Part shown: positions 3,116-63,838 of the stretch, one piece after another
Layout: every line of letters begins with the position of its first letter
Numbering within the stretch: the stretch's first letter is position 1
Source: an uncultured Bacilli bacterium
GTDB lineage: Bacteria; Bacillota_I; Bacilli_A; RF39; UBA660
DNA: 64,000 nt
Direction: 5' to 3'
NCBI GenBank assembly: GCA_934120265.1
Contig: CAKOTU010000002.1
Span: forward strand, 40,905-104,904
Notes under the pieces: model-generated
Database searches by the model: none
Told to the model about the DNA's origin: nothing
Seen by the model: only the letters and a program-made list of their open reading frames with translations
Program-made: the position numbers and the translations under genes

Positions 3116-3288
3116 TTTTTCCTCCTTTTTATTTTAGAAATACAATATTGACTAAGCCACAAATCAATAATTTGCTGTACTCCTAGTACATTGTATCATA
3201 TTTTGACAAAAAATGACACTAATTATAGAACTTTTATCTACTATTTATATATAAATAAAATCTATCATAAGTGACAAAATATATATAG

Positions 3289-8329: not shown

Positions 8330-8462
8330 ATGTCATTGCTGACAACAAATATTTTAACAAGTTTTAAGCGATTTGACAAGAGTTTTTATAAAAAAAGATA
8401 AATTAGTTATATACCTATACACTAATTTATTAGTTCCATACAATAAAACGAGGAGGGATATT

Positions 8463-8900
8463 ATGAATAGTTATAACTTAACCCAAGATTATTATAACTA
8501 TGTTAATAATAATTACAATCAACCTTTGTATAATCAAAATGTAGAAAAATATAGTGTTTATGATGTATACAACGGCTATATAAGAGGAAATATGTTTCCT
8601 GCTTTATACAATTTTTATAGGACAGATAAACCTTATGAAATAACTCCAATGAATGAACAAGCGGAGCTTCTTACATATGTAGATATGTATACTTTTGCGA
8701 TGACTGATTTAAATCTTTATTTAGATGTTCATCCTGATGATAAGGAAGCATTACAACTTTTTAATGAATATCGCAAACAAGCTATAGAAGCTACTAAAAA
8801 TTACGAAAATAAATATGGACCTTTACAATTAACTAGCAACTCACTTAATACATTCCCTTGGGCTTGGGATAATGAACCATGGCCTTGGGATAAGAAATAG
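8463..8900 (+). CDS. cotJB: Spore coat protein CotJB with N-terminal CotJA-like region (apparent CotJA-CotJB fusion)
   Basis: C-terminal half matches CotJB (LLTYVDMYTFAMTDLNLYLDVHPDDKEALQLFNEYRKQ...KYGPL). N-terminal Y/N-rich part has a CotJA-like G.MFPALY..Y motif. Strong RBS aggaggg before the ATG at 8463. The long 8373 start is in the track but has no RBS. Confidence 0.6.
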   Translation: MNSYNLTQDYYNYVNNNYNQPLYNQNVEKYSVYDVYNGYIRGNMFPALYNFYRTDKPYEITPMNEQAELLTYVDMYTFAMTDLNLYLDVHPDDKEALQLFNEYRKQAIEATKNYENKYGPLQLTSNSLNTFPWAWDNEPWPWDKK

Positions 8901-8910
8901 GAGGGATAAT

Positions 8911-9468
8911 ATGTGGATTTATGAGAAGAAATTAGAATATCCTGTCAATATTCGCAGAAAAGATTTAAAAATGGCTAAAAATTTGCTATCGCAATATGGA
9001 GGTAGTACTGGTGAATTAGGCGCAGCTTTAAGATATTTAAATCAAAGATATACTATGCCTGATGAAAGAGGCAAAGCTCTTCTTACTGACATTGGAACAG
9101 AGGAACTTGCTCACATCGAAATGATTGCGGCCATGATAACACAATTAGTTAATGGTGCTACAGTGGAAGAATTAACTGCTGCTGGATTAGATGCACAGTT
9201 TGCGCAACATGATCATGGAATATTTCCAGCAGACGCTTTCGGTGTTCCATTTACTGCTGCTTACATAGAAACAACAGGAGATTATATTGCTGATATTGAA
9301 TCAGATATGGCTGCCGAACAAAGAGCTAGAGCAACATATGAACATTTAATGGATTTAACCAACGATCCTGATTTACTAGCGCCTTTAGCATTCCTACGTC
9401 AAAGAGAAGTTATTCACTATCAACGATTTAAAGAATTAAGAAATTACTACCTTGAAAAGAAAATATAA
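8911..9468 (+). CDS. cotJC: Spore coat protein CotJC (manganese-catalase-like ferritin fold)
   Basis: Starts MWIYEKKLEYP, essentially identical in pattern to B. subtilis CotJC MWVYEKKLQYP. Di-metal ligand motifs EELAHIEM and EHL present. RBS taggaggg 6 nt upstream. Overlaps the cotJB stop. Confidence 0.85.
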   Translation: MWIYEKKLEYPVNIRRKDLKMAKNLLSQYGGSTGELGAALRYLNQRYTMPDERGKALLTDIGTEELAHIEMIAAMITQLVNGATVEELTAAGLDAQFAQHDHGIFPADAFGVPFTAAYIETTGDYIADIESDMAAEQRARATYEHLMDLTNDPDLLAPLAFLRQREVIHYQRFKELRNYYLEKKI

Positions 9469-18056: not shown

Positions 18057-18686
18057 CTATAATTCAGAAATTTTTTTATCATAGTAATTTTCAGGATTTA
18101 CAATTGATCCTTTTACAATCATTTCAAAATGTAAATGATTTTTTAAATCGTTTTCGATATTACAAGTACCACTAGTTCCAATAATATCGCCTTGTTTAAT
18201 TTCTTGATTCTCTTTTACCTTAACATCACTTAAACTTTGATAAATACTTATAATATCATTACTATGTGTTACTTCTACAATTTTACCTAAGTTTTGATCT
18301 TCTTTAATAGAAGTTACAGTACCATCTAAAATAGAAACTACATCAAATGATGCCTCTCTTCCATAACTGATACCACTATTTTGTAAGTATGTGTTTTCAT
18401 AGTATATTAATGATTTTTCTTGATTTTCAGCTTCGCTTTTATAATCATAATAATTTTTAACTATGCTTACATCGTTAACTAAATAAGGCCTTACAATAGT
18501 ATCTGCAGTGTTAATAACAGGTACATCTTCTTCTATAACTGTCTTATTTACATAATCATCATCTACACCATTAAAACTGTTCGATGGAAACATCCCTTCT
18601 ATTAGATATAATGTTCCTAGTAACATTACAAATCCTAAGGCATATAAACTATACACAACTGCTTTTTTTAATTTTCTTCTTTTCAC
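18057..18686 (-). CDS. spoIIQ: M23/LytM-domain protein in SpoIIQ position (SpoIIQ-like, intact HxH)
   Basis: N-terminal TM anchor plus a C-terminal LytM domain (HSNDIISIYQSL, NHLHFEM). Located immediately upstream of spoIIID as in Bacillus. Intrinsic terminator hairpin agagc-tta-gctct at 18030-18056. Confidence 0.55.
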   Translation of the reverse strand: MKRRKLKKAVVYSLYALGFVMLLGTLYLIEGMFPSNSFNGVDDDYVNKTVIEEDVPVINTADTIVRPYLVNDVSIVKNYYDYKSEAENQEKSLIYYENTYLQNSGISYGREASFDVVSILDGTVTSIKEDQNLGKIVEVTHSNDIISIYQSLSDVKVKENQEIKQGDIIGTSGTCNIENDLKNHLHFEMIVKGSIVNPENYYDKKISEL

Positions 18687-18740
18687 TTTCTCACCTCATT
18701 TTAAGTTTGGACAGAAAGTGATTTATTTATACTAATTTTT

Positions 18741-19655
18741 TTAAATTTTTTCAATTTGAATATTTTGATAATAATATTTTAATATTTCATCATATTTATA
18801 ACCTTTTTTTGCCATTGCTAAAGCTCCATATTGACTCATTCCTACTCCATGGCCATATCCTTTAGTATTGATAACAACGTTACTGCCAATTTGATTTATT
18901 TCAAAAAAAGTTGAACGTAAATTTAAATTTTTATATACCTCACTACCCGTAAATTTTTTATTATTTATTTTAATATTCTTTATTCTACCGGTACTAGTAG
19001 TATTTAAAACTTCTACTTTAATTTTATCAGAATATTTTAAATTTAAGCGTTCATAAAATTCCTGCAAACTGTATTCTTTTGAATCGTTAAATACAGGAGA
19101 TACTTCTTCATCCCATGTTGAATCTACACTTCTAAGATATGGCAGAGCTTGTTTAAAAACATCTTCACTATTTTCTGTCTTTCCTACACTTGTAGAAAAA
19201 AAGAAAGCTTCTATTACTTTTCCATTATAAGATAAGTATTCACCTTTAGTTTCTAATACCGCTGTTTTTACTTTATTAATTCGTTCCTGATATTTATCTT
19301 TCCATTTATCTTGTAGTTCTTGATCGCTAATATATACTTGATTTTGAACTGTATCTACAATATCATAATCTTCATTTTTATTATCACTCATTTTTTTCAT
19401 TACATAAGTTCTTGCTGCTACAGCTTGGGCTTTTAGTGCTTCTAATTCAAAATTTACTGGCATTTCCCCTGCTAATACACCAACAACATAATCTTCAAAA
19501 GGAACCACTTCTACTGTGTTAGTTTCTTCTCTTTTTACTCTAACATTCATTCCTTCAGTATAGTAAAATTTTATATCATCAGTCTTGATAAATAAACTTA
19601 CGATAATATAAGGAATGAAAATAATAATTAAAATGACTAAGATAATTTTTTTCAT
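18741..19655 (-). CDS. spoIID: Stage II sporulation protein D (lytic transglycosylase, SpoIID/LytB family)
   Basis: SpoIID signature (EDYVVGVLAGEMP, EALKAQAVAARTY, HGVGMSQYGA). N-terminal TM anchor. Confidence 0.85.
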   Translation of the reverse strand: MKKIILVILIIIFIPYIIVSLFIKTDDIKFYYTEGMNVRVKREETNTVEVVPFEDYVVGVLAGEMPVNFELEALKAQAVAARTYVMKKMSDNKNEDYDIVDTVQNQVYISDQELQDKWKDKYQERINKVKTAVLETKGEYLSYNGKVIEAFFFSTSVGKTENSEDVFKQALPYLRSVDSTWDEEVSPVFNDSKEYSLQEFYERLNLKYSDKIKVEVLNTTSTGRIKNIKINNKKFTGSEVYKNLNLRSTFFEINQIGSNVVINTKGYGHGVGMSQYGALAMAKKGYKYDEILKYYYQNIQIEKI

Positions 19656-31719: not shown

Positions 31720-32298
31720 TTATATATACTTATCAACAATTTCCTTTAAAAAAGATTTATATTCTACGTCTGTACTTTCCTCTGCTTCTAACATACATAA
31801 AGGAGGAAATAAAACACACCACCAATTATTTCCTTTTCCTTCACCAATAGTAATAACTAAAGACTCGTAATATCCTTCATCATAAGTTATTCCCTTGAAT
31901 TCCTTTTCCGGAAAGTAATTTAATCCAAAATTAACCACGTAATTAAGTTTATAATTATTTCTATTAAATACATTGGTCACTTTATTGCTTATGTTATCTA
32001 AATTAGTAGAAATAATAGCTCTAGATTCATCAATATTATCAACGTTTTGTAAAATAGAAGCCATATATGATTCTACTTCATCTTTTACTTTATATTTTAC
32101 ATCTTGATCTTGTGTGCTATTGCTATTGGCTATTACTCTAAATCTAATTGCTTCATCTGGTATCTTTATTATTTCCTCACTTGCCACTCCAATTATATAA
32201 TAAATTAAAAATATTGTTATTAAAATAAATATTGTTTTTTTCATAAAAAGATTGTCCTTTCTATTTAATAGTGGACAATCTTTTTGATATTTATTCAA
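31720..32298 (-). CDS. spoIIR: Stage II sporulation protein R
   Basis: Signal/TM N-terminus and the SpoIIR hallmark C-terminal motif NWWCVLFPPLC. 192 aa. Confidence 0.8.
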   Translation of the reverse strand: MNKYQKDCPLLNRKDNLFMKKTIFILITIFLIYYIIGVASEEIIKIPDEAIRFRVIANSNSTQDQDVKYKVKDEVESYMASILQNVDNIDESRAIISTNLDNISNKVTNVFNRNNYKLNYVVNFGLNYFPEKEFKGITYDEGYYESLVITIGEGKGNNWWCVLFPPLCMLEAEESTDVEYKSFLKEIVDKYI

Positions 32299-50105: not shown

Positions 50106-50305
50106 TTTTCCACACAGTATTTTTCTTTAATTTATAATATATAACGTTATTTTCCACAGTAGATGTGGAAAACTTACTAACATGTGATTTGATATGTTAA
50201 TTATTTTTCCACAATGGGTGTTGAAAATGTAATTATTCTTTTAAAAATAATGTCGTTTGGTGTGGAAAATTGTGTTAATTTGTCGAATTTTAATATTTTT
50301 CCACA
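50106..50305. promoter_or_regulatory. oriC DnaA-box cluster upstream of dnaA (6 boxes)
   Basis: TTTTCCACA at 50106, 50150, 50205, 50297 and TGTGGAAAA at 50164, 50261. One-mismatch variants of TTATCCACA, in both orientations within 200 bp. Confidence 0.8.
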
Positions 50306-50373: not shown

Positions 50374-51726
50374 GTGGATATTAATACTATTTGGAACCTT
50401 TTTTTAGAAAAAATAAAAGGGGAACTTGATCCTATACTTTATGAAACTTGGTTCATGGATACTAAATTAATAGAATTAAACAACAATACTGCTAAAATAT
50501 TAGTGCCAATGCAAGTACATAAAAAACACCTTAAAGAAAACTATAATAATCTTATAGAAGAAATTTTCACTGAAATTACTGGTAGTAATTTTAAATTTGA
50601 ATATCTATTAGAAGAAGAAATTGTTAAAAATGTTACTATTGATGTGGATAAAGTAGGGGTTCCATCAAATAATTTATTTGAATCTAATCTTGATCCTAAA
50701 TACACATTTGATAATTTTATTGTAGGTAACAGTAATAAATTTGCTAAGGCTACATCTTTAGCTGTTGCAGAACAACCTGGTTTTATGTATAATCCTTTAT
50801 TTATATATGGAAGTAGTGGATTAGGTAAAACTCATTTAATGCACGCTATTGGAAATTATATTGTGAAAAATAGTAATAAAAAAGTATTATATGTTACTAG
50901 TGAAAAGTTTGTGGATGATTTTCTTAATATATATAGGAAAAACAAAGAAGAAAATAACTTTGATGCGATAAACGAATTTAAGAATAAGTATAGAAATGTT
51001 GATGTGTTAATGATAGATGACATTCAATACTTAGAAATAGCAAGTAAAACACAGCAAGAATTCTTTAATACTTTTAATGAATTACATTGTAATAATAAAC
51101 AAATCATTATTTCTTCCGATAGATCACCAGATGATTTAAAAAAATTAGAAGAAAGACTTAGAACTAGATTTAACTGGGGTTTAACGATAGATATTTTGCC
51201 ACCAGATTTCAAGTTAAGAATGGATATAATTGATAAAAAAATAGAGGCTAATGATGTATGCAATGATTTTCCTATGGAAGTTAAAGAATATATTGCTAGC
51301 AATTGTACTTCTGATATAAGAAAACTTGAAGGAGCTATTACAAGAGTATTCGCTTATGCAACTATTATGAATGGATCTGATATTACAATAGAATTAGCAA
51401 CAGAGGCTTTAAAAGACTATTTCGTTAAAAGCATTATATCAAAAAATAAAATTGAACAAGTACAACAGTTAATTGCCAATGCTTATAATATTTCTGTAGA
51501 AGATATAAAAAGTAAGAAAAGAATGTCAAGTATTTCTGTTCCTAGACAAATAGGTATGTATATATGTAGAACTTATCTTTCCGAATCTTTACCTAAAATA
51601 GGATTAGAATTTGGTGGAAAAGATCACACTACAGTAATGCATTCAGTAGATAAGATAAAAAAAGAGATTAAAACTAACAGTGAGTTAGAAGAACAAATTA
51701 ATAAAATAGTTAATCAAATAAAATAG
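50374..51726 (+). CDS. dnaA: Chromosomal replication initiator DnaA
   Basis: GTG start with RBS gtgaggtga. AAA+ Walker A GSSGLGKTHL, Walker B LMIDDIQ, C-terminal DNA-binding domain (RQIGMYICR...HTTV). Confidence 0.95.
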   Translation: MDINTIWNLFLEKIKGELDPILYETWFMDTKLIELNNNTAKILVPMQVHKKHLKENYNNLIEEIFTEITGSNFKFEYLLEEEIVKNVTIDVDKVGVPSNNLFESNLDPKYTFDNFIVGNSNKFAKATSLAVAEQPGFMYNPLFIYGSSGLGKTHLMHAIGNYIVKNSNKKVLYVTSEKFVDDFLNIYRKNKEENNFDAINEFKNKYRNVDVLMIDDIQYLEIASKTQQEFFNTFNELHCNNKQIIISSDRSPDDLKKLEERLRTRFNWGLTIDILPPDFKLRMDIIDKKIEANDVCNDFPMEVKEYIASNCTSDIRKLEGAITRVFAYATIMNGSDITIELATEALKDYFVKSIISKNKIEQVQQLIANAYNISVEDIKSKKRMSSISVPRQIGMYICRTYLSESLPKIGLEFGGKDHTTVMHSVDKIKKEIKTNSELEEQINKIVNQIK

Positions 51727-51870
51727 TGGTGGAAAAACAAATTTAAACAACATTTTTTCCACAATATAAAATTACTGTTTGTCCTTGAAAATAAAAGAAA
51801 AATGATAGTTTTATACATTTTACACACTAATAATAAAAATAACTATTATAAAAATAAAAATTATAGGGAG
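51727..51870. promoter_or_regulatory. dnaA-dnaN intergenic oriC segment: DnaA-box-like inverted pair plus AT-rich unwinding-element candidate
   Basis: gtggaaaaa (51729) and TTTTCCACA (51755-51763) form an inverted pair. Then ~90 nt that are >85% A/T. In Bacillus-type origins the DUE lies between dnaA and dnaN. Confidence 0.45.
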
Positions 51871-51878
51871 GTTTATTT

Positions 51879-53000
51879 ATGAAATTAAAAATTAAACAAA
51901 ATATATTAATGGAACATTTAAATTATGTTATTAAAGGAATATCAAATAAAAATTTAATACCTATATTAAACTGTATTAAATTTGAACTTACAAATGAAGG
52001 TTTATATTTATTAAGTACTGATAATGAAATTTCTATTAAAACTTTTATTAAAAAAGAAGATATTGAAAAAATAGATACTTTAGGAGATATTGTTGTTTCT
52101 GGTAGATATATATATGATATTATTAAAAAATTACCAAATGAAATAATAGATATAGAAGAAGTAATGGATTCAAAAATATTTATTAATACAACTAATTCAT
52201 CATTTAATTTAAATTGTAATTTAGTTAGTGATTTTCCTAGATTAGAATTAGAAGAGAGTAAAACACCAATTGTTTTAAACCAAAAAGTATTTAAAAATAT
52301 AATTAATCAAACTATTTTTGCTACGTCAACTCAAGAGTCTAGACCTGTATTAACTGGTATCAATTTAAAAATAACAGATGATATATTAGAATGTACAGCT
52401 ACAGATTCATATAGATTAGCTAGTAAAAAGATAAAATTATCCACAGCAATTAGTGAAAAAATTAATATTATTATTCCAACACGTAATTTAAATGAATTAT
52501 TAAAGTTACTTACTAATGATGAAGATGAAATTAAAATACATATATTTAATAATAAAATTATATTTATGTTTGATACAATTATATTTATGTCAAGACTTAT
52601 TAATGGTACTTATCCAGATGCTTCAAAATTAATACCTAATGAATTTACAGCAACATTAACAGTAAATCTAAAAGATTTATATAATTCTATAGATAGAGCG
52701 TCATTATTAACTAATGAAGCAGATAAGAATACTGTTAAATTAAATATAGAAAATGAACAAATTATATTAAAATCAAATATTCCTGAAATAGGTAATGTAG
52801 AAGAAAAATTAAGTATTATAGATTATGATAATAATAATATTAAAATAGCATTTAGTTCAAAATTTATGATGGATGCTTTAAAAGTAATGGAATGTGAGAA
52901 TGTTAAATTATTATTTAATGGTGAAGTAAAACCAATAATTATTAAAAATGCAGAAAATGATGATTTAATTCAATTAATATTACCAATAAGAACTTATTAA
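51879..53000 (+). CDS. dnaN: DNA polymerase III beta sliding clamp
   Basis: 373 aa, three-domain beta clamp, RBS agggagg. Conserved position after dnaA. Confidence 0.95.
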   Translation: MKLKIKQNILMEHLNYVIKGISNKNLIPILNCIKFELTNEGLYLLSTDNEISIKTFIKKEDIEKIDTLGDIVVSGRYIYDIIKKLPNEIIDIEEVMDSKIFINTTNSSFNLNCNLVSDFPRLELEESKTPIVLNQKVFKNIINQTIFATSTQESRPVLTGINLKITDDILECTATDSYRLASKKIKLSTAISEKINIIIPTRNLNELLKLLTNDEDEIKIHIFNNKIIFMFDTIIFMSRLINGTYPDASKLIPNEFTATLTVNLKDLYNSIDRASLLTNEADKNTVKLNIENEQIILKSNIPEIGNVEEKLSIIDYDNNNIKIAFSSKFMMDALKVMECENVKLLFNGEVKPIIIKNAENDDLIQLILPIRTY

Positions 53001-53005
53001 AAAGA

Positions 53006-53040
53006 GAGAAAAAATTGAAAAAAAGTACAATTTTTTCTTT
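53006..53040 (+). terminator. Terminator-like hairpin after dnaN
   Basis: agaaaaaattg-aaaaaaagtac-caattttttct inverted repeat followed by a T-run. Confidence 0.35.
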
Positions 53041-53046
53041 TTTTTG

Positions 53047-53126
53047 ACAAATTTCGACAAAAAATGACAAAAAAATAGAGTATAAGAAAGGAAATTTCCA
53101 ATTTTTGTGGAAATTTATAAGTAGAG
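53047..53126. promoter_or_regulatory. Repeat-rich control region upstream of the comK-like gene (three TGACAA/TCGACAA repeats plus a DnaA-box-like inverted repeat)
   Basis: TTGACAAATTTCGACAAAAAATGACAAAAAAA contains a Spo0A-box-like TTCGACA. AAATTTCCA-N7-TGGAAATTT is a perfect inverted repeat containing TGTGGAAAT. Confidence 0.35.
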
Positions 53127-53138
53127 GGAGGTGAATTT

Positions 53139-53588
53139 ATGTTAGAAAATTATGAAATAAATAGTGGTACATTAGCTGTTATACCAATAGATGAGTATAC
53201 ATCAAAAGTTATTGAGTTGGATAATGAGTATATTGTTAATAAACCATGTTTTGAAATAATTGATGATAGTTGTAATTATTATGGTAGTACATATCAAGGT
53301 AGATATGAAGGAACAAAAAATATGATAGGAATGAATTATAAATTACCAATCATAATAGAAGAGAGCAAAAATATAATATTTTTTCCTACAACATCTCCAA
53401 GACTAATTAATTGTTCTTGGGTTTCCTTAAATAATTTAAAAACTTATTTAAGAAATAATGAGGGATCTGATATAGTATTTAAAAATGATAGTATAGTTAA
53501 TTTTAGTATTTCAATTTTTTCATTAGAAAGTCAAATTTTACGTGCATCAAGATTGGAATCAATTTTAAGAAGTAGAAAAAATCAATAA
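53139..53588 (+). CDS. ComK-family protein (short, 149 aa) in the position usually occupied by yaaA
   Basis: YEINSGTLAVIPIDE...CFEIIDDSCNYYGSTYQGRYEGTK...LPIIIEESKNIIFFPTTSPR...CSWVSLNNLK aligns to B. subtilis ComK (YEVNGATIAVLPEE...SCRFFGSSYAGRKAGT...PPIMVDPSNQIFLFPTLSS...CGWISHVHVK). RBS gagggagg. Confidence 0.7.
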   Translation: MLENYEINSGTLAVIPIDEYTSKVIELDNEYIVNKPCFEIIDDSCNYYGSTYQGRYEGTKNMIGMNYKLPIIIEESKNIIFFPTTSPRLINCSWVSLNNLKTYLRNNEGSDIVFKNDSIVNFSISIFSLESQILRASRLESILRSRKNQ

Positions 53589-53595
53589 TTATAAA

Positions 53596-53623
53596 AAAAT
53601 AGGCAAAAAAGCCTATTTTTTTG
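53596..53623 (+). terminator. Intrinsic terminator after the comK-like gene
   Basis: aaaataggc-aaaaaa-gcctatttt followed by a T-run. Confidence 0.5.
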
Positions 53624-53729
53624 CTTTTTATTATCAAATTTATGATATAATATATATGATGTATAGGAATATTAAAAATATACTTTTTTTCTTCTACAGC
53701 CTTAAAAATATCAAAAACAGGGGTGTTAT

Positions 53730-54842
53730 ATGTATTTAAGTAATATAAAATTACATAATTTTAGAAATTATGAAAAATTAGTGTTAGATTTTACTCCTGG
53801 TATTAATATTATCTACGGAAATAATGCTCAAGGAAAAACAAATTTATTAGAATCTATATACTATTTATCTGTAACTAAATCACATCATTCTTTTTTAGAT
53901 AATAATTTAATAAAGAACGGGGAAGATAGTTTATTTGTTGAAGGAATTATTAAAGATAATGATTTAACCAATAAATATTCTATAGAATTAGTTAATCATA
54001 AGAAACTATTAAAAATAAATGATGATAAAATAAATAAAATTAGTGATTATATATCTAATATTAATACAATTTTCTTTTATCCCGATGATTTGAATTTGAT
54101 AAAAGGTAATCCTGAAGTAAGAAGAAGATATTTGAATATTCAATTAAGTCAGTTATCAAGTATATATTTTAAAAATATAAGTGACTATAATAAACTATTA
54201 AAAATAAGAAATGATTATTTGAAAAAATATGTCGATAGAATTGATTTTGATGAAAATTATTTTGATATAATAACAGATCATTTAATTGATAAAAGTATTT
54301 ATATATATAAAATGCGAAAAAAATATATTTCAAAAATCAATCAATATAGTAAACTTATAAGTAAAAAAATATATAATAACGATAATTATGAAGTTGTATA
54401 TAAGACAAATTTTGATCATTTAGATTTTAATGAGGTAGATATAAAATCTAAAATAAAAGAGGAATATAGAAAAAATTTATATAAAGATAAAAAGTATAAA
54501 ATCACATTATTAGGTCCTCAAAAAGATGATTTTGAATTTATATATGATGATAAAAATTTAAAATTGTATGGTTCACAAGGGCAACAACGTTTAGGAGTTT
54601 TAGTATTTAAATTGTCTGAAATAAATATCTTTAATGATTTTAAACAGACAAAGCCTATATTACTTTTAGACGATGTATTTAGTGAATTAGACAATAATAA
54701 AAAAAATAGTTTATTAAATTATATTAATAACGAGATTCAAACAATTATAACAACGACAGATTTATCAAATTTAGATGAAAATTTAATTAATACATCAAAT
54801 CTAATAAAGATAAATGGTGGCAAAATAGAAGAGGTGGAATGA
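53730..54842 (+). CDS. recF: DNA replication and repair protein RecF
   Basis: [15 protein letters not shown], Walker [13 protein letters not shown], signature and Walker B ([12 protein letters not shown]). Confidence 0.9.
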
Positions 54843-54843
54843 A

Positions 54844-56769
54844 ATGGAACAAAATAATCAACATTATGATGCATCTGATATTCAAGTATTGGAAGGTTTA
54901 GAAGCTGTTAGAAAACGTCCTGGTATGTACATAGGAACAACAGATGTAAAAGGGTTGCATCATTTAGTATGGGAAATAGTAGATAATTCTATAGATGAAG
55001 CTTTAGCTGGATATTGTAATAATATTGAAATAATAATTAATAAAGACAATTCTATTACAGTTAAGGATAATGGTAGAGGTATTCCTGTTGGAGTACATCC
55101 AAAAACAGGTCTATCCACAGTAGAAACAGTTTATACAGTTTTACACGCTGGTGGAAAGTTTGGAGGCGGAGGATATAAAGTATCTGGAGGTCTTCATGGA
55201 GTAGGTGCTAGTGTTGTTAATGCTTTATCTAAATGGGTAACAGTAACAGTCTATAAAGATTCAAAAATATATGAAGCAAAGTTTGCTGATGGTGGAAAAA
55301 TCATTCAAAAATTAACAGTTATAGGTGATTGTGATCCTAATAGAACAGGAACAACAGTTTCATTTAAACCAGATCCAGAAATTTTTGATACAGACATATA
55401 TGATTATGAAACATTAAAAACAAGAACAAGAGAATTAGCTTTTTTAAATAAGGGTTTAAGATTAATATTAAGAGATGATAGAGACGATGAAGACACAACT
55501 GGAGAAGTATTCCATTATGAAGGTGGAATCAGTGAATATGTAAGATATTTAAACAGAAATAAAACACCAATTCATGAACAAATAATTCACTTAGAAGGTG
55601 AAGATGATGGTGTTATGTTTGAAGTAGCTATGCAATATAATTCTGGTTATACTGATAGTATTTATTCATTTGTTAATAATATTAATACTCACGATGGTGG
55701 TACTCATGAGGAGGGAGTTAGAAGAGCTTTAACTCGTATAATAAATAATTATGCAAGAAAAAATAATTTTTTAAAGGAAAAAGATGATTCTTTAACTGGT
55801 GATGATGTTAAAGAAGGATTAACAATGATCGTTTCTTGTAAACATCCTAATCCACAATTTGAAGGCCAAACAAAGGGAAGATTAGGAAATTCTGAAGTAA
55901 GAAAACTTGCTGATAATGTTTTTTCTGCGGGATTTGAAAGATTTTTAATGGAAAATCCAGATGAAGCTAAATTAATAATAGAAAAAACAATGACAGCAGC
56001 ACGTGCTAGAGTAGCGGCAAAGAAAGCAAGAGAATTAACAAGAAGAAAAAGTGATCTAGATGTAGTTAATTTTGGTGGAAAATTAGTCGATTGTAAAGAT
56101 AAAGATCCTAAAATATGCGAAATATTTTTAGTCGAGGGAGATTCGGCTGGAGGATCTGCTATTAAAGGTAGAAATTCAATGACTCAAGCTATTTTACCGT
56201 TAAGAGGTAAAATACTTAATGTAGAAAAAGCTAGATTAGATAGAGCTTTATCAAATGAAGAAATTAGAACAATTATAACAGCTTTTGGAACAGGTATAGG
56301 AAATGAATTTGATTTAAGTAAATTAAGATATCATAAAATAATAATCATGACCGATGCCGATGTTGATGGATCACATATTAGAGTTTTATTATTAACATTA
56401 TTCTACAGATTCTTTAGACCAATAGTAGAAGCAGGACATGTGTATGCAGCTCAACCACCATTATTTTGTATAAAGCATGGTAAAACAATTAAATATGTTT
56501 TAAATGAAGAAGAAAGAGATTCTTATCTAGCTTCATTAAATCCTAATACAAAATATGATATAGCTCGTATGAAAGGTTTAGGAGAAATGGATGCAGAAGA
56601 ATTAAATGAAACAACAATGGATATAAATACAAGAATACTAAGAAAAATAACTGTAGATGATTTAATAGCTGCAGATGAAGTATTCTCTAAATTAATGGGT
56701 GATGAAGTAGAACCAAGAAGAGAATTTATAGAAGAAAATGCAGTATATGTAGAAAATTTGGATATTTAG
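54844..56769 (+). CDS. gyrB: DNA gyrase subunit B
   Basis: GHKL ATPase ([15 protein letters not shown]), TOPRIM ([12 protein letters not shown]), QRK loop. Starts 1 nt after the recF stop. Confidence 0.95.
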
Positions 56770-56781
56770 GAGGTGTAATAT

Positions 56782-59241
56782 ATGGATCATAGTAGAGATA
56801 GATTAGAAGAAAATAACATAGTAGAAGAGGTAAAATCATCATTTTTAGAGTATTCTATGAGTGTAATAGTATCACGTGCTTTACCAGATTTACGTGATGG
56901 TTTAAAGCCAGTTCATCGTAGAATTTTATGGTCAATGTATGAATCTGGATATACACCAGATAAACCTCATAAAAAATCAGCTCGTATAGTTGGAGATGTA
57001 ATGGGAAAATATCACCCACATGGAGATTCTTCAATATATGAAGCAATGGTAAGAATGGCTCAAGACTTTAATTATCGTCATATGTTAGTAGATGGGCATG
57101 GTAACTTTGGTAATATTGAGGGTTATGGTGCAGCAGCAATGCGTTATACCGAATCTAGATTATCAAAAATATCATTGGAATTATTAAGAGATATTAATAA
57201 AGATACTGTTAATTTTATTCCAAACTTTGATGAATCTGAAAAAGAACCATCAATTTTACCATCAAGATTTCCAAATATATTAGTTAATGGAACAATGGGT
57301 ATTGCTGTAGGTATGGCAACTAATATTCCACCACATAACTTGGGAGAAGTAATAGATGGATGTATTGCTTATATTGATAATCCGGATATTGATACTTTAG
57401 GTTTGATGGAATATATAAAAGGACCAGATTTTCCTACTGGGGGCATAATTTTAGGTAATAGCGGTATTAAAAAGGCCTATGAAACAGGTCGTGGTACTAT
57501 TACTATAAGAAGTAAGGCTACTATAGAAGAAAAAGATGGTAAAAATTATATAGTAATTGATGAAGTTCCATATGGTGTTAACACAATGGAATTAAAAAAC
57601 AAAGTTGCAGAATTAGTACATAATAAAACAATAGATGGTATTTCTGATTATCATACTGACTTAAAAGATGGTATTAAAATAACTATTACATTAAAAAGAG
57701 ATGCAAATCCACAAGTTGTTTTAAATAATTTATATAAACATACTCAATTTCAAACAAATTATGGAATTATATTCTTGATGCTTGATAATGGTGTACCAAA
57801 AACGCTTGGACTTAAAGATATCATAACTAAATATATTGATTATCAAAAAGAAATTATTATAAGACGAACAAGATTTGATTTGAATAAATGTGAAGCGAGA
57901 GTTCATATTTTAGAAGGTTTAAAAGTAGCTCTAGATAATATTGATGAAGTTATTAAGATAATTAAAGCTTCAAAGACAGATGACATAGCTAAAGAACAGT
58001 TAATGTCTAAATTTCCTTTAGATGAAATTCAATGTGAAGCTATTTTGGAAATGAAGTTAAGAAGATTAACTGGTCTAGAAAAAGATAAGATTGAAAATGA
58101 ATTAAATGATTTATTAGAACGTATTAAGGAATTAAAAGCAATTTTAGGCTCTGAACAAAAAGTTTTAGATATAATTAAGTTAGAATTAACTGAAATTAAA
58201 AACAAATATAGCGATGATAGAAGAACAAAAATTGATATGTCAGCAATAGATTATATAGAAGATGAATCATTAATTCCAGTTGAAGATATTGTAATTACTT
58301 TAACTAACAAAGGATATATCAAACGTGTATTAAGCGATAATTTTAAATCTCAAAATAGAGGTGGAGTCGGAATTAAAGGAATGTCTACAAATGAAGAAGA
58401 CTTTGTACAATATTTACTTTCTATGACAACCCATGATTATATATTATTCTTTACAAATAAGGGAAAAGTATATAGATTAAAGGGCTATGAAATTCCTTTG
58501 TTTAATAGGCAATCAAAGGGAATTCCAATAATTAATTTATTACCAATAGAAAAAGAAGAGGTTGTTAAAGCTATGTTAAAGATAGAAAATAACGACGAAT
58601 CTAAATATATTGTATTTTGTACACAAACTGGTTTAGTTAAGAGAACTAAACTTGAAGAATTTGATAGTATTAGATCAAATGGTAAATTTGCAATAACTCT
58701 AAGAGAAGATGATGAATTACTTGATGTTAAAAAAACTACTGGAGACAACCAAATATTAATTGCATCTTCAAATGGAAGAATGATAAGATTTAAAGAAGAT
58801 GAAATTAGAGTTATGGGTAGAAGTGCTGCTGGTGTTAAAGGAATTGAAGTAGATGATGGCAAAGCAGTAGGATGTGAAGTTTCTGAACCAAATAAAAATG
58901 TATTAATAGTAACAGAAAATGGTTATGGAAAGAAAACTAATATAGATGAATATAGAATGACACATCGTGGTAGTAAAGGTGTAAAAGCATTAAATATAAC
59001 AGAAAAAAACGGTAATATAGTTGCTTTCAGGATGGTTGATGGTGATGAAGATCTAATGATTGTTACTAATTCTGGAATAATTATACGTTTAAATTTAATA
59101 CAAGTATCTAATACAGGTAGAGTAGCTCAAGGTGTAAGATTAATAAATTTAAAAGATAACCAAAAGGTTGGAAATATATCAATATTAAAAAAAGAAGATA
59201 GTGATGAAAGCGAAGATGCTACTGAACAAATAATTGAATAA
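56782..59241 (+). CDS. gyrA: DNA gyrase subunit A
   Basis: Active-site region with YHPHGD (QRDR), AAMRYTE catalytic Tyr, C-terminal beta-pinwheel repeats, acidic tail. Confidence 0.95.
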
Positions 59242-59380: not shown

Positions 59381-59409
59381 TTGAAAAAATGTTAAAAATA
59401 TAATATATT
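59381..59409 (+). promoter_or_regulatory. Sigma-A-type promoter for the SRP RNA gene
   Basis: TTGAAA (59381-59386), 17-nt spacer, TATATT (59404-59409). Predicted start ~59415 coincides with the 5' arm of the SRP RNA helix. Confidence 0.45.
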
Positions 59410-59413
59410 ATTA

Positions 59414-59490
59414 GTGCACAACATTTATGTTTGAACCAGGTCAGAATTGGAAAATAGCAGCCTTAAGATCCTCTAAATGTGTGTGCTTTT
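59414..59490 (+). ncRNA. ffs: Signal recognition particle RNA, short (4.5S-like) form
   Basis: Single long hairpin (gtgcacaacattta...taaatgtgtgtgc) enclosing the conserved domain IV motif CCAGGTCAGAATTGGAAAATAGCAGCC (compare AGGUCAGGUCCGGAAGGAAGCAGCC). Followed by a ttttttt terminator. Conserved position upstream of tadA-dnaX as scr is in Bacillus. Confidence 0.6.
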
Positions 59491-59497
59491 TTTATGA

Positions 59498-59513
59498 TGT
59501 TTCACGTGAAACG
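59498..59513. promoter_or_regulatory. parS site 3 (TGTTTCACGTGAAACG, 1 mismatch)
   Basis: 15/16 match to the palindromic parS. Directly after the SRP RNA terminator. Confidence 0.65.
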
Positions 59514-59564: not shown

Positions 59565-59984
59565 ATGAATGATTTTATGAATTTAGCTTTAAAACAGGCG
59601 TTAAAGGCATATAAAAAACAAGAAGTACCCATAGGTACTGTTATTGTTAAGAATGGAAAAATAGTATCCAAAGCTTATAATAAAAAAGAAAATAAAAAAA
59701 TGACTACTAAACATGCTGAAATTATAGCTATAGAAAAAGCGTGTAAAAAATTAAAAACATGGCATTTAGATGGATGTGAAATATATACAACGATGGAGCC
59801 CTGCTTAATGTGCTATGGTGCAATAGAACAATCGCGAATAAGAAAGATTAATTATGGATTAAAAAATATGAATTTCGGATTTAAAAGCAAATATAATATA
59901 GAATCAAAGTTAGAAATTTGTGAATGTAAAATATCAGATGAATATATTGACTGTATAAAATCTTTTTTTAAAGAAAAGAGGTAA
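59565..59984 (+). CDS. tadA: tRNA-specific adenosine deaminase
   Basis: CDA fold motifs HAE and PCLMC. 139 aa. RBS aagggtga. Confidence 0.85.
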   Translation: MNDFMNLALKQALKAYKKQEVPIGTVIVKNGKIVSKAYNKKENKKMTTKHAEIIAIEKACKKLKTWHLDGCEIYTTMEPCLMCYGAIEQSRIRKINYGLKNMNFGFKSKYNIESKLEICECKISDEYIDCIKSFFKEKR

Positions 59985-60037
59985 AATAATTAAAAAATAA
60001 TATTCAAAATGATATAATAAAACAAGAGGTGATTAAT

Positions 60038-61723
60038 ATGTATCAAGCATTATATAGAAAATATAGACCTATAGATTTTTCTGATGTAGTTGGTCAAGAT
60101 ATAATAGTGAAAACGCTATTAAACTCTTTAAAACTTGGTAATATAAATCACGCTTATTTGTTTACAGGCCCTAGAGGAACTGGTAAAACAAGTATAGCAA
60201 AGATATTAGCAAAATCAGTTAATTGTGAAAACTTAATCGATGGTGTTGCTTGTAATAAGTGCGTAAATTGTACACAAAATATTAATAAAAATCATGTTGA
60301 TGTTATAGAAATAGATGCTGCTTCAAACAATGGGGTAGACGAAATAAGAGAATTACGTAATAAAGTTAATCTAGTACCATCTTTAGGCAAGTATAAAATA
60401 TACATAATTGATGAGGTTCATATGCTTACTACAGGGGCTTTTAATGCTTTATTAAAAACATTAGAAGAACCACCTAAACATGCTATTTTTATATTAGCAA
60501 CGACTGAACCTCAAAAAATACCACTAACTATATTATCAAGGTGTCAACGCTTTGACTTTAAAAAGATAAGCAATAACTATATTTTTAAAAGGTTAAAAGA
60601 TATTTGTGATAAAGAAAATATTAAAATAACAGAAGATAGTATAAGGGAAATAGCAAGATTAGCTGATGGTGGAATGAGAGATTCTTTAAGTATCCTTGAT
60701 CAAGTTTCATCATTTACACAAAATGAAATAACAGTAGAGGATGTTCATTTAATTAACGGAACACTAACACAAGAAGAGTTATCTAAATTTGCAGTAGAAA
60801 TTTTAAATAAAAATGTATATGAAGTATTAAAAAAAATCGATAATTTTGATGAAAATGGTAAAAATTTCACCAAAATATTGGAAGAATTAATCTTATTCTT
60901 CAAAAATGTATTGATAGTTGAAGAAGCTCCCCAATATTTGATTGATACGAATTATGATATTGAAATATATAAAAGTATGGCTGGAATATTATCAAAATTA
61001 GAATTAATCGATATAATAGATACGATGAACCAAAATTTATCTATTATAAAAAAAGGTACAGTACAGAGATTACAATTTGAATTATTGATTTTAAAACTGC
61101 TTAATTATGATAAAGTACAAAATAAACAAGAAAAAATAAATACACCAAAAGTAGATACAAAAATAGATATAAAAGTAAAACCAATAGAAAATAAAAAGGA
61201 ATTAAAATCGGAAGATAATGCTTCAAATAAAATTGATAATTCATTTGTACAAATTAATCAAGAAATAAAAGAAAAATTAAAACAGATAAAAGAAATAAGA
61301 ATAAATAATACTCTAGCAAATTTTAATAAAAAAGAACTAACAAAAGTAAAATCATTAGAAGATGATTTAAAACCACTTTTAATAAATTTAGATTACAGTA
61401 AATATGTATCTATTATTTTAGACGGTAATTTAAAGGCAGCAAGTGAAGATTATCTTATTTACGTATTTAATACAGAAACTGATAGTGACTTATTTAATGA
61501 GAATATTTTAAAAATAGAAGAAATTATTGCTAAGGTTTTTAAACATAACTACAAAGTTATTTCGACAGATAATATTTCCTGGGAAATAATTAAGAAAGAA
61601 TTTAATTCCCATATCAAACAGTATACATATGTTGAGGAAACAGAAAATATAAGTAAAATATTAAAAAATGAAAATAAAAATGAAATAGAAAATTTATTTA
61701 GTGATGCAATAAACTATAATTAG
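60038..61723 (+). CDS. dnaX: DNA polymerase III subunits gamma/tau
   Basis: MYQALYRKYRP start (RBS agaggtga), Walker A GPRGTGKTS, zinc module CNKCVNC, SRC motif. The 3-codon-longer GTG start sits inside the RBS. Confidence 0.9.
   Translation: MYQALYRKYRPIDFSDVVGQDIIVKTLLNSLKLGNINHAYLFTGPRGTGKTSIAKILAKSVNCENLIDGVACNKCVNCTQNINKNHVDVIEIDAASNNGVDEIRELRNKVNLVPSLGKYKIYIIDEVHMLTTGAFNALLKTLEEPPKHAIFILATTEPQKIPLTILSRCQRFDFKKISNNYIFKRLKDICDKENIKITEDSIREIARLADGGMRDSLSILDQVSSFTQNEITVEDVHLINGTLTQEELSKFAVEILNKNVYEVLKKIDNFDENGKNFTKILEELILFFKNVLIVEEAPQYLIDTNYDIEIYKSMAGILSKLELIDIIDTMNQNLSIIKKGTVQRLQFELLILKLLNYDKVQNKQEKINTPKVDTKIDIKVKPIENKKELKSEDNASNKIDNSFVQINQEIKEKLKQIKEIRINNTLANFNKKELTKVKSLEDDLKPLLINLDYSKYVSIILDGNLKAASEDYLIYVFNTETDSDLFNENILKIEEIIAKVFKHNYKVISTDNISWEIIKKEFNSHIKQYTYVEETENISKILKNENKNEIENLFSDAINYN
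61574..61587. promoter_or_regulatory. NBS-like site ATTTCCTGGGAAAT (1 mismatch) inside dnaX
   Basis: 13/14 match to the NBS consensus. The central CCCGGG is degenerate to CCTGGG. Confidence 0.3.
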
Positions 61724-61736
61724 GAGGAAAGATAAT

Positions 61737-62033
61737 ATGAATATGCAAGCTATAATGAAACAAGCTCAAAAATTACAAAAAGATATGTTAGAAGCTCAAA
61801 ATGAAATAAACAATAAAGTATTTGAATCAAAATCATCTTTAGTAAGTGTTAAAATGACAGGCGCTAAAAAATTAGTTGAAGTAAAGATAGATGCTGATAC
61901 AATAGAAAATGATGATATAGAAATGTTAGAAGATATGATTATGGTTGCAGTTAACGATACTTTAAAGCAAATAGAAAAAGAAACCGAAGAAAAATTAGGC
62001 AAATATGCTCAAGGAATGCCAGGTTTATTTTAA
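61737..62033 (+). CDS. ybaB: Nucleoid-associated protein YbaB/EbfC
   Basis: 98 aa. MQAIMKQAQKLQKDM...GMPGLF is the canonical YbaB. Confidence 0.9.
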   Translation: MNMQAIMKQAQKLQKDMLEAQNEINNKVFESKSSLVSVKMTGAKKLVEVKIDADTIENDDIEMLEDMIMVAVNDTLKQIEKETEEKLGKYAQGMPGLF

Positions 62034-62638
62034 TGTATAATTATCCAAAAAGTATAAGAAATTTAATAGATAGTTTAAAAAAATTACCTAGTGTTGGTGA
62101 AAAATCAGCAGAACGAATGGCTTTATCAATATTAGAAGAAGATAAAGATCAAGTTGAGTTTTTTGCTAAGTCTTTATTAGATGCAAAAAATAAAATTAAA
62201 AAATGTAAAATTTGCAATAATTTTTCTGAAGAAGATATTTGTGAAATATGTAGTGATAAAAATCGTAAAAGTGATGTTTTATGTGTTGTAGAATATCCTA
62301 AAAATATAATTATGTTTGAAAGAACAGAATCATTTTCAGGAAAATATCATGTTTTAAATGGGCTTATTTCTCCTTTAGATGGAATAACACCAGATGATAT
62401 AAATATAAAATCTTTAGTTGATAGAGTAGAACAAGAGAATATAAAAGAAATAATTATCGCAGTAAAACCTAGCATAGAAGGTGAAACAACCGCATTATAT
62501 ATTTCAAAAATATTTGAAAATACTCAAGTATTGGTCACTAAAATTGCTCATGGAGTTCCATTAGGAACAGATATGGATTATATCGATACTTTAACTTTAG
62601 AATTAGCTTTAGAAGATAGAAAAAAAATATCTAATTAG
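62033..62638 (+). CDS. recR: Recombination protein RecR
   Basis: HhH (LPSVGEKSAERMA), C4 zinc finger (CKICNNFSEEDICEIC), TOPRIM. Start overlaps the ybaB stop. Confidence 0.9.
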   Translation: MYNYPKSIRNLIDSLKKLPSVGEKSAERMALSILEEDKDQVEFFAKSLLDAKNKIKKCKICNNFSEEDICEICSDKNRKSDVLCVVEYPKNIIMFERTESFSGKYHVLNGLISPLDGITPDDINIKSLVDRVEQENIKEIIIAVKPSIEGETTALYISKIFENTQVLVTKIAHGVPLGTDMDYIDTLTLELALEDRKKISN

Positions 62639-62675
62639 TTGTGTATCTTCATATCATTTATAGAGGTGAAGATAT

Positions 62676-62864
62676 ATGTTAAAAAAAATATTTCAAATAT
62701 TAAAAAAAATAGTTTTTTCAATGTTTTTAATTTATGGTTATAATTTAATTGCAGTACCATTAGGAATTTTGGTACCATTAAATATACTAACTGTCTTATA
62801 TGTTGCTATATTTGGTGTACCAGCATTACTATCATTAATTGCATTGATATTTTTTGTGTTTTGA
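62676..62864 (+). CDS. bofA: BofA-like small membrane protein (pro-sigma-K processing inhibitor family candidate)
   Basis: 62 aa, two TM. The segment GYNLIAVPLGILVPLNILTVLYVAIFGVPALL resembles BofA (VPINLVTTAISGILGIPGIAAL). Position after recR mirrors the Bacillus recR-yaaL-bofA arrangement. Confidence 0.45.
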   Translation: MLKKIFQILKKIVFSMFLIYGYNLIAVPLGILVPLNILTVLYVAIFGVPALLSLIALIFFVF

Positions 62865-62881
62865 TAGAAAGGAAGTATGTT

Positions 62882-63838
62882 ATGCTTAGTGAATATTATG
62901 CAGATAATCATATAGCTTGTGAAATACTATATAGACAGTTAAAAAGTTTAAATATTTCCCATGCTTATATTATAGAAACTAATAATTACTATAGAGGCTA
63001 TGATTTTGCTTTATCGTTTGCTAAAGCCATACTATGTCCTAAAAAAAATGTTGACTATAATCTTTGCGGGAATTGTGATCTTTGTACACAAATTGATAAT
63101 GGTAATAATACAGAGTTGGAAATAGTAAGACCAGATGGTATGTGGATAAAAAAAGATCAATTAAATGGTCTTCAAAAGGATTTTTCTACCAAAGCAGTAA
63201 CGGCATCCACGAAAGTATATATTATAGATCAGGCTGAAAAAATGAACGAAGCTGCAGCTAATTCCATTTTAAAGTTTTTGGAAGAACCTGAAGATAATAT
63301 AGTTGCCATATTAGTTGTTAACAATGCTGAAATGTTACTTGATACAATTTCCTCAAGATGTCAGAAAGTAAAATTAATAAATAAAAAGAATGTAATAGGA
63401 AATACTGATTTAGAACGTGTAGCAAATTATATATTTGATGATAAAACAAAACAGATAGAATTTATTCAAAGTGAACAAAGCAAAAATATGTTAAGTTCTG
63501 TTATTAAATTTATTAAATCTATAGAAAATAATAAAAGAGATACACTTTTAAAAGAAAATACAATATGTTCAATAATTTTAAAGGATAAACTCTTGTTTCA
63601 AGAGTATTTAAAAATATTGCTTTTATTGTATAATGAAGCTTTGAATTATACAATAATCAAATCAGAAAAAATATTTGTAGAGAATAGAGACGTATTAGAA
63701 TTAATAGTTTCTAAAAATGATACAGATAGTTTAGCAAACAAAATATTAACAATATTAAAAATAGAGGAGAGATTAAAATATAATTGTAATCTTAACTTAG
63801 TATTAGATAAATTAATTTTAATGTTAGAAGGTGATTAG
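62882..63838 (+). CDS. holB: DNA polymerase III delta-prime subunit
   Basis: SHAYIIE start region, zinc module CPKKNVDYNLCGNCDLC, Walker-B-like VYIIDQAEKM, SRC. ATG 62882 with RBS aaaggaag. The upstream TTG lies in the RBS. Confidence 0.85.
   Translation: MLSEYYADNHIACEILYRQLKSLNISHAYIIETNNYYRGYDFALSFAKAILCPKKNVDYNLCGNCDLCTQIDNGNNTELEIVRPDGMWIKKDQLNGLQKDFSTKAVTASTKVYIIDQAEKMNEAAANSILKFLEEPEDNIVAILVVNNAEMLLDTISSRCQKVKLINKKNVIGNTDLERVANYIFDDKTKQIEFIQSEQSKNMLSSVIKFIKSIENNKRDTLLKENTICSIILKDKLLFQEYLKILLLLYNEALNYTIIKSEKIFVENRDVLELIVSKNDTDSLANKILTILKIEERLKYNCNLNLVLDKLILMLEGD

Follow-up and report, generated by a model that had tools for sequence, protein, structure and literature searches.

A ComK-family gene preceded by phased Spo0A-box-like repeats lies between dnaN and recF in a deep clade of uncultured gut Bacilli

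RESULTS

A ComK-family gene with its own promoter lies beside the replication origin

We analyzed a 64,000-nt stretch of contig CAKOTU010000002.1 from an uncultured Bacilli bacterium (the window, in whose numbering all coordinates are given). In this window, a comK-family gene of 149 amino acids (aa) occupies 53139-53588 on the forward strand. Its neighbors are dnaN and recF, and a DnaA box located between dnaA and dnaN is ~1.3 kb away. We find that the gene encodes a full ComK domain without the C-terminal extension, that comK is fixed between dnaN and recF in a deep clade of uncultured gut Bacilli with a G+C content of ~27%, and that it is preceded by tandem, phased boxes which, judged by their sequence, read as Spo0A boxes and not as DnaA boxes. 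On balance, we lean toward a model in which comK, lacking the degron for MecA/ClpCP, would be controlled by phosphorylated Spo0A (Spo0A~P), taking the Spo0A wiring and the role of ComK together. Both the regulator and the promoter logic are known; what is new is this variant in an uncultured clade.

The gene encodes a complete ComK domain that ends before the degron region

The open reading frame (ORF) starts with an ATG 5 nt after the Shine-Dalgarno sequence GGGAGGTG (53126-53133, forward strand). An earlier note, written from the letters of the window alone, had assigned the gene to the ComK family, and a profile search bears this out: the Pfam ComK model PF06338 matches the 149-aa protein with 136.5 bits, far over the cut-off of 22.3 (E = 7.9e-40), across profile positions 2-150 of 152. 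No significant match to the protein was found in NCBIfam or in the PDB sequence library. In an alignment with B. subtilis ComK, the two proteins are 35% identical (E = 5e-31), with residues 2-146 matching residues 9-157. The B. subtilis query has the expected 192 aa, and its C-terminus differs by one residue from the degron given in PMC8138137.

The alignment also confirms the observation that the protein is C-terminally shorter than B. subtilis ComK (149 versus 192 aa). It continues for 3 residues past the one that aligns with residue 157 of B. subtilis ComK, whose last 35 residues have no counterpart. In B. subtilis, the C-terminus holds the degron (FMLYPK...) by which MecA targets ComK to ClpCP (PMC8138137, citing Prepiak and Dubnau 2007), and in the alignment to B. 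subtilis ComK this degron is missing from the 149-aa protein. Therefore, comK control in this clade is probably mainly transcriptional.

The shortened form is typical of its relatives. The homologues that we collected (n = 270) are mostly 147-153 aa long, and nearly all come from metagenomes and metagenome-assembled genomes (MAGs) labelled Bacilli, Tenericutes, Mollicutes, or Firmicutes. Among 17 diverse members, 29 alignment columns are invariant. The MAG CAKPHO01 shows ~95% DNA identity, and the identity of its ComK is 97%. By these sequence criteria, the ComK orthologues are conserved, full-length, and under constraint. An AlphaFold model of the protein (53139-53585, built with 17 homologues) reached a predicted local distance difference test (pLDDT) score of 95.2. 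We know of no solved ComK structure, and the only PDB fold neighbors of the model are LytTR DNA-binding domains, all of them weak and none with E ≤ 0.001. These are ComE (4cbv; E = 0.044, probability 0.92), AgrA (4xqn, with a template modeling score of 0.61 on the target, and 3bs1), and a B. cereus protein (3d6w). A similar point on the resemblance between ComK and the LytTR fold is made in a 2026 preprint (PMC13232269).

comK occupies the yaaA slot in most related loci

To place the gene in its wider context, we scanned one genome per species, which returned 402 stretches with a ComK relative, and took the best 80 as loci. Synteny was then read from tblastn searches of the window's DnaA, DnaN, RecF, GyrB, and GyrA proteins against these loci. 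The order dnaA-dnaN-comK-recF-gyrB-gyrA is complete in 70 of the 80, and two more, cut by a contig end, have recF-gyrB-gyrA after comK. comK is thus kept beside the origin in 72/80 species-level loci. Since DnaA identity among the syntenic loci falls from 98% down to 51%, the arrangement must be old. The spacers vary little, with mostly ~90-160 nt between dnaN and comK, mostly ~90-200 nt between comK and recF, and a few larger insertions; the block dnaA-dnaN-recF-gyrB-gyrA is intact in every syntenic locus, with nearly constant intergenic lengths.

In B. subtilis, the slot between dnaN and recF is filled by yaaA. The earlier note had proposed that comK sits in this slot, and the synteny agrees with it: dnaN-comK-recF recurs in the 72 loci, and tblastn with a B. 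subtilis YaaA query returned no match in either the window or the 80 loci. Our literature search returned no paper describing comK between dnaN and recF, or in RF39-type bacteria. In the remaining loci (L024, L044, L046, L051, L057, L079, L027, and L038), comK adjoins pcrA-ligA and/or gatCAB. The pcrA and ligA genes belong to DNA metabolism, and comK has replication or repair neighbors in both contexts.

One pairwise comparison shows an abrupt change at this locus. Between the window and L002, nucleotide identity is ~82-90% across dnaA and dnaN and 76-79% inside comK, and it rises to ~94-98% from 53583 on, through recF-gyrB-gyrA; at the protein level, ComK is 73% and GyrB 99% identical. This jump at the comK terminator reflects either a recombination breakpoint or a chimeric MAG contig.

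dnaN, comK, and recF form three separate transcription units

Upstream, dnaN (beta clamp; 51879-53000, forward strand) is followed by a terminator-like 14-bp hairpin with a T-run at 53004-53045 on the same strand (-11.1 kcal/mol, z-score -2.5), and a hairpin with a T-run is visible after dnaN in most aligned related loci. Downstream of comK, an intrinsic terminator lies at 53592-53623 on the forward strand (-13.8 kcal/mol, z-score -3.8), as the earlier note had predicted. The next gene, recF (53730-54842, forward strand), has a promoter with the extended -10 element TGATATAAT at 53643-53651 on the forward strand, which starts the recF-gyrB-gyrA unit. This element is general: TGnTATAAT precedes recF in essentially every locus, ~85 nt (mostly 75-96 nt) from the recF ATG. 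Given the dnaN terminator, the promoter and terminator that comK has of its own, and the separate recF promoter, we conclude that these genes form three transcription units, and the idea that comK lies inside an origin operon has to be dropped.

Three phased boxes take the place of a -35 element upstream of comK

The comK promoter region contains three tandem boxes at 53043-53069 on the forward strand, namely TTTGACA (53043-53049), TTCGACA (53053-53059), and AATGACA (53063-53069). Their GACA cores are exactly 10 bp apart, and a -10-like TATAAG (53081-53086, forward strand) follows at distances of 11, 21, and 31 nt from the three boxes. The middle box is the perfect reverse complement of TGTCGAA. 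This heptamer is the Spo0A core (0A box), with contacts at G2, C4, and G5, and is recognized by both the B. subtilis and the C. difficile proteins (PMC3485338).

The same pattern holds across the related loci, where the box unit with its flanks reads WWTT(C/T)GACAWAA and the step from one GACA core to the next measures 10 bp in 25 cases and 20 bp in 26, with almost no other distances. To quantify this, we compared 81 distinct comK upstream regions with 19,402 background windows. Boxes with at most one mismatch to TTCGACA occur 1.57 times per 90-nt comK upstream region versus 0.10 times in the background, and tandem pairs at 10- or 20-bp spacing are present in 41/81 upstream regions versus 0.06% of background windows. 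Exact TTCGACA/TGTCGAA reaches 5.6 per kb upstream of comK and 4.6 per kb in the comK leader, compared with 0.05 per kb elsewhere.

The boxes are also phased with the promoter. TATAAG is present in 29 of the 51 anchored loci, often with a preceding TGn, and box to -10 spacers of 11, 21, and 31 nt dominate. No -35 hexamer is found 17 bp from the comK -10; instead, a box stands at a distance of 21 nt. This spacing resembles that of over-spaced σA promoters, such as spoIIG (22 bp) and spoIIE (21 bp). The boxes, the -10, an AGGAAAT motif, and an inverted repeat (both described below) accompany comK to the ligA-pcrA or gatCAB loci. Because it travels with comK to loci away from the origin, this architecture belongs to comK and not to oriC, and the repeats are not simply part of a conserved oriC array of DnaA boxes.

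The tandem boxes are shared with spo0A and other sporulation-related promoters

We next asked which other genes follow the same arrangement, by scanning metagenome contigs for the tandem motif TTCGACAWWWTTCGACAWWW and inspecting the first downstream ORFs of the resulting 120 stretches. These ORFs include 7 ComK homologues. At least 9 encode Spo0A-like response regulators, and the Response_reg and Spo0A_C domains are present in 5/5 of those checked (E = 1e-35 to 1e-47). An AbrB-type gene, spoVS, and histidine kinases are also among the downstream ORFs. No late competence gene was seen among the recognizable downstream ORFs. Some of the contigs have 41-60% G+C and thus lie outside the AT-rich clade. 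AT-rich MAGs named 'Bacilli bacterium' encode many such Spo0A proteins, and the promoters of these spo0A genes carry the same tandem boxes. The box arrangement found at comK is therefore one that also marks the Spo0A regulon, and the suggestion that the upstream repeats resemble Spo0A boxes comes out stronger than it was made: the repeats are conserved, phased, and common to spo0A and abrB-type promoters.

One other regulator with the same 7+3 geometry was considered. The CtsR site is GGTCAAA-N3-GGTCAAA; CtsR was rejected, as the first base differs and the motif co-occurs with spo0A and abrB-type genes.

A degenerate tandem pair, TTTGACA-AAA-AATGACA, lies elsewhere in the window at 3204-3218, ~70 nt upstream of a 99-aa gene of the XRE family with a helix-turn-helix (3289-3588), and on metagenome contigs, small XRE-type genes come after the tandem motif in three cases (L109, L116, and L183). 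The window gene may be a SinR-like Spo0A target. We set the pair aside as a regulon member; with two degenerate boxes and one occurrence, it is too weak.

The window itself encodes several sporulation proteins. These are CotJB (8373-8900), a CotJC-type Mn catalase (8872-9468), SpoIID (18741-19655), which together with an adjoining M23 peptidase spans 18057-19655, and SpoIIR (31720-32298). Based on the CotJB, CotJC-type, SpoIID, and SpoIIR genes, the organism is predicted to form endospores; its relatives are labelled 'Tenericutes' or 'Mollicutes' in databases. RF39 and related uncultured orders have been predicted to be spore formers (PMC10868615).

A model for Spo0A~P control of comK

In the mechanism that we propose, Spo0A~P would bind the three predicted boxes, 7 bp each, head to tail with a 10-bp period, which lie at about -50 to -24 of the inferred start. 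The boxes would replace the -35 element before TATAAG, and Spo0A~P would turn on a σA-type, -35-less comK promoter. At high levels, Spo0A~P may shut comK off again, acting at the proximal box and, in the many species that have one, at an inverted box pair downstream of the -10. The short ComK would escape MecA/ClpCP control and would activate the genes for DNA uptake and recombination (the K-state) elsewhere in the genome. The data show the family membership, the synteny, the layout of the transcription units, the conservation and phasing of the boxes, and the association of this box arrangement with genes of the Spo0A regulon; Spo0A binding at the comK boxes, the direction of regulation, and the ComK regulon are what we infer.

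Several observations weigh against the model. The window has just one perfect 0A box, the other two boxes having 1 and 2 mismatches. A tblastn search with B. subtilis Spo0A gave no match in the window or in any of the 80 comK loci, and contigs with spo0A share with the comK loci only a study series (BRZ_*), never one assembly. The presence of Spo0A in the host genome is thus a presumption. The proximal box, at about -30 to -24, is where a repressor would sit, which leaves the sign of regulation uncertain. Likewise, the late competence genes comG, comE, comF, dprA, and ssbB were not found in the window or the loci, so that a competence role for this ComK is assigned from its family membership. 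Finally, AGGAAAT-N15-GAAT, a σH-type promoter, also fits many loci, as discussed below.

The position beside oriC can be explained without a function

The origin and the local DnaA box are defined here by a cluster of six exact TTTTCCACA boxes at 50106-50305 (no strand assigned), upstream of dnaA (50374-51726, forward strand). TTWTCCACA occurs 16 times in the window versus 1.9 expected, with 6 occurrences in this cluster and one in the dnaA-dnaN spacer at 51755-51763 (forward strand). A very AT-rich stretch follows the spacer box and is likely the unwinding region.

The position of comK close to this origin may be functional, via gene dosage or replication linkage. The simplest alternative, to which we assign about an even chance, is that the position has no function: comK would have entered, in a single insertion, the block of the chromosome that best resists rearrangement, and would since have been carried along. 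The block is indeed kept in every syntenic locus with nearly constant spacers, comK is found away from the origin in the non-syntenic loci, and its regulatory region is self-contained and independent of its neighbors. Moreover, B. subtilis comK works from another chromosomal position, far from oriC. Nothing speaks directly against a passive position. However, comCDE and comAB of S. pneumoniae also lie beside oriC (PMC8394987), which keeps a dosage role plausible, although the gene-dosage model for pneumococcal comCDE is itself contested (PMC8394987).

The stronger claim, that the placement of comK as the nearest gene to oriC outside replication is adaptive and would tie entry into competence or the K-state to replication through origin dosage together with Spo0A~P, strikes us as improbable. 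We regard as similarly unlikely that such a placement would represent a convergent counterpart of the pneumococcal comCDE/oriC arrangement, in a spore-forming, genome-reduced gut lineage without MecA/ClpCP control. As background to both, the level of Spo0A~P in B. subtilis is gated by the replication cycle.

Exact 0A boxes are also mixed among the oriC DnaA boxes, at 50281-50287 in the window and upstream of dnaA in L007, L063, L064, and L073; upstream of dnaA, their density is 0.51 per kb versus a background of 0.05 per kb. This recalls the binding of Spo0A to oriC in B. subtilis.

The leader contains a variable inverted repeat and a σH-like motif

Directly after the -10, the motif AAAGGAAAT (53087-53095, forward strand) has a nearly invariant AGG..A. 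From its sequence, this motif could be either the transcript start or a σH-type -35 (RNAGGAWWW). It overlaps an inverted repeat at 53092-53116 on the forward strand, in which AAATTTCCA (53092-53100) pairs with TGGAAATTT (53108-53116) across a 7-nt loop (-7.4 kcal/mol, z-score -2.2). By our reading of the fold listing, an inverted repeat is present at the same place in most of 78 distinct leaders. In many loci, its arms form TTCGACA-N5-7-TGTCGAA, that is, two inverted 0A boxes; other lineages have ATCTAATTTT/AAAATTAGAT, GATATTTTT/AAAAATATC, or AAAGA..GTTCT/AGAAG..TCTTT, and DnaA-like arms (TGTGGAAAT or TGTGGAAAA) occur only in the closest relatives. The earlier note had described the repeat as built from DnaA-box halves. 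The repeat is real, but because its arms differ widely among species, the conserved property is symmetry and not a DnaA box.

We also considered whether the repeat acts as RNA. An initial argument from the stability of the forward-strand hairpin (more stable in 68/78 leaders, Wilcoxon p = 3e-11; G-U pairs 105 versus 32) was withdrawn after a shuffle control, since composition-matched shuffles reproduce the same strand asymmetry (-2.07 versus -2.18 kcal/mol, p = 0.94). Internal mismatches in the leader stems (13 G:T versus 4 A:C) are suggestive at most of RNA. RNAalifold returned no consensus structure for a MAFFT alignment of 49 leaders, in which the stems lie in different registers by lineage, and this difference in register makes a column-wise covariation count impossible.

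The motif after the -10 raises the question of the sigma factor. A σH-type promoter would have its -35 at AAAGGAAAT (53087-53095) and its -10 near GGAAAT (53109-53114). The boxes would then act from about -60 to -80, as in σH-dependent, Spo0A-activated sporulation promoters, and TATAAG would be incidental or part of a second promoter. The B. subtilis σH consensus, RNAGGAWWW-N11-12-RNNGAAT, matches the motifs and spacing observed: AGGAAAT directly after TATAAG is nearly invariant, (C/G)GAA(A/T) is fixed 14-15 nt downstream in most loci, and L030 and L031 contain AGGTAAT-N15-GAAT and AGGAAAT-N15-GAAT, respectively. However, no GAAT or GAAA stands at that position in L007, L020, L066, and L070, the -10 in the window would be one base off (GGAAAT), and TATAAG itself is conserved at a fixed distance from the boxes. 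We therefore consider a σH promoter unlikely, if worth keeping in mind. It would change the sigma factor and not the logic, since Spo0A would remain the regulator.

Neither ComK nor DnaA is a better candidate for binding the boxes

A different alternative keeps the promoter type and changes the protein that binds the boxes. If the phased TTCGACA boxes were this clade's ComK boxes, then ComK would activate its own gene via direct repeats and not via A4-N5-T4 dyads. B. subtilis ComK, as a rule, activates its own promoter (PMC3297582). No canonical K-box lies upstream of comK, so any auto-activation must use another site. The weak LytTR fold matches of the AlphaFold model fit with such a site. 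LytTR domains bind direct repeats with a period of ~21 bp, and the well-matched boxes are often 20 bp apart. Nevertheless, the box is identical to the Spo0A core; tandem boxes precede spo0A, abrB-type, and spoVS genes, including on contigs with 41-60% G+C; the downstream genes include no recognizable late competence gene; and none of the fold matches reaches E ≤ 0.001. We thus hold this explanation to be quite doubtful, a little more so than the σH promoter.

The absence of K-boxes carries little weight in this comparison. The earlier note had pointed to paired AT-boxes (AAAA-N5-TTTT) as possible ComK sites in the genome. In the window, the search returned no exact K-box, whatever the type, a result that says little because the expected count is also near zero. 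Single AT-boxes are present in 30/81 comK upstream regions, nearly all of them within the dnaN terminator, in a search that covered exact boxes.

That the repeats and the inverted repeat are instead DnaA sites, through which DnaA would control comK and couple it to the initiation of replication, is very improbable. Its appeal comes from similarity and proximity: the 0A core TGTCGAA is one base off the local DnaA core TGTGGAA, the 3' arm of the inverted repeat in the window is TGTGGAAAT, which matches TGTGGAAAA at 8/9 positions (a perfect TGTGGAAAA is found in L004), comK is ~1.3 kb from oriC, and in E. coli oriC, weak DnaA sites of like orientation form arrays at ~11 bp. Against this, the box cores are CGACA (69) or TGACA (48), 117 in all, versus 2 for CCACA, so that the comK boxes carry a G in place of the C that is conserved in TTWTNCACA. 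The stretch 52990-53140 lacks any consensus DnaA box, compared with 7 around dnaA; where comK is found away from dnaN, in the non-syntenic loci, its promoter architecture has gone with it; and the arms of the inverted repeat vary freely among species. The coupling of comK to DnaA at oriC that the earlier note had envisaged is therefore not supported.

Other features of the origin region

The remaining genes of the block are gyrB (54844-56769) and gyrA (56782-59241), the last of the dnaA-dnaN-comK-recF-gyrB-gyrA series, whose order is otherwise that of the standard Firmicute origin block. In the window, gyrB directly follows recF. Downstream of gyrA are a signal recognition particle RNA (59406-59502) and, at 59565-63838, tadA-like deaminase, dnaX, ybaB/ebfC, recR, and holB-like genes in the usual Firmicute order. 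No rRNA operon was found within the window.

The recF leader has a conserved layout of its own (53643-53729 in the window; comK-recF spacers of L001-L080). TGnTATAAT is followed after ~5-8 nt by GTGTATAGGAGTAC, which often forms a small hairpin whose loop reads UAGGAG (L007, for instance, has AGTAGGTA-TAGGAG-TACCTACT), and RGCNTTAAAAW stands close to the Shine-Dalgarno sequence. The leader has no Rfam match. We tried the leader motif GTATAGGAGTA as a regulon site and rejected it, since it is confined to the recF leader (48/74 matches with at most one mismatch).

DISCUSSION

Three known systems help to place this comK gene. The closest is B. subtilis comK itself. Both proteins belong to the PF06338 family, with 35% identity over the whole domain, and both genes are monocistronic with several Spo0A-type boxes upstream. 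In the B. subtilis comK promoter, five putative Spo0A sites are described, three for activation (A1-A3) and two for repression (R1-R2), and their mutation alters expression (PMC3297582). Many relatives of the window likewise have two more boxes past the -10. The differences are that the B. subtilis protein has 192 aa and a degron region (PMC8138137), whereas the protein described here has 149 aa and lacks it, and that the promoter described here has no A4-N5-T4 K-boxes and strictly phased tandem boxes in place of a -35. The two genes also differ in location, beside oriC here and far from it in B. subtilis.

The promoter itself most resembles the tandem 0A promoters of the abrB, spo0A, spoIIG, and spoIIE type. 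It shares with them a head-to-tail TGTCGAA core with a 3-bp spacer and a 10-bp period, and a box that occupies the place of the -35 but lies 21 nt from the -10. The identical motif precedes spo0A, abrB-type, and spoVS genes in metagenomes. Unlike in these promoters, the gene is comK and the three predicted boxes extend to -24.

With respect to chromosomal position, the comparison is with S. pneumoniae comCDE/comAB, in which a master-control locus of competence also lies directly beside oriC and is conserved within the lineage (PMC8394987). The pneumococcal locus, in contrast, encodes a peptide-sensing two-component system unrelated to ComK.

Compared with the canonical Firmicute block, dnaA-dnaN-yaaA(rlbA)-recF-remB-gyrB-gyrA, the order of dnaA, dnaN, recF, gyrB, and gyrA is the same, as are the clusters of DnaA boxes upstream of dnaA and in the dnaA-dnaN spacer. 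Here, however, comK stands in place of the S4-domain gene yaaA, the gene between recF and gyrB is missing, and the transcription signals of dnaN, comK, and recF are separate.

To our knowledge, nearly everything known about ComK, a textbook bistable developmental switch, comes from cultured Bacillus, Staphylococcus, and Listeria. Our results extend ComK to a very large group of uncultured gut Bacilli, which keeps a minimal ComK that is degron-free, carries phased Spo0A-type boxes, and has a fixed place at the side of the origin. If the proposed promoter design is right, its three boxes from -50 to -24 and the absence of a -35 would make it a model for how Spo0A activates or gates a gene outside sporulation. 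Whether the proximity of a competence regulator to the origin matters can also be asked in this clade, a second lineage that is independent of the streptococci. If Spo0A~P does control comK as we propose, then members of this clade would be naturally transformable, or would enter the K-state, under the control of the sporulation phosphorelay. This would be relevant to gut gene flow and, with it, to how resistance genes spread, and may aid the genetic tractability of the clade.

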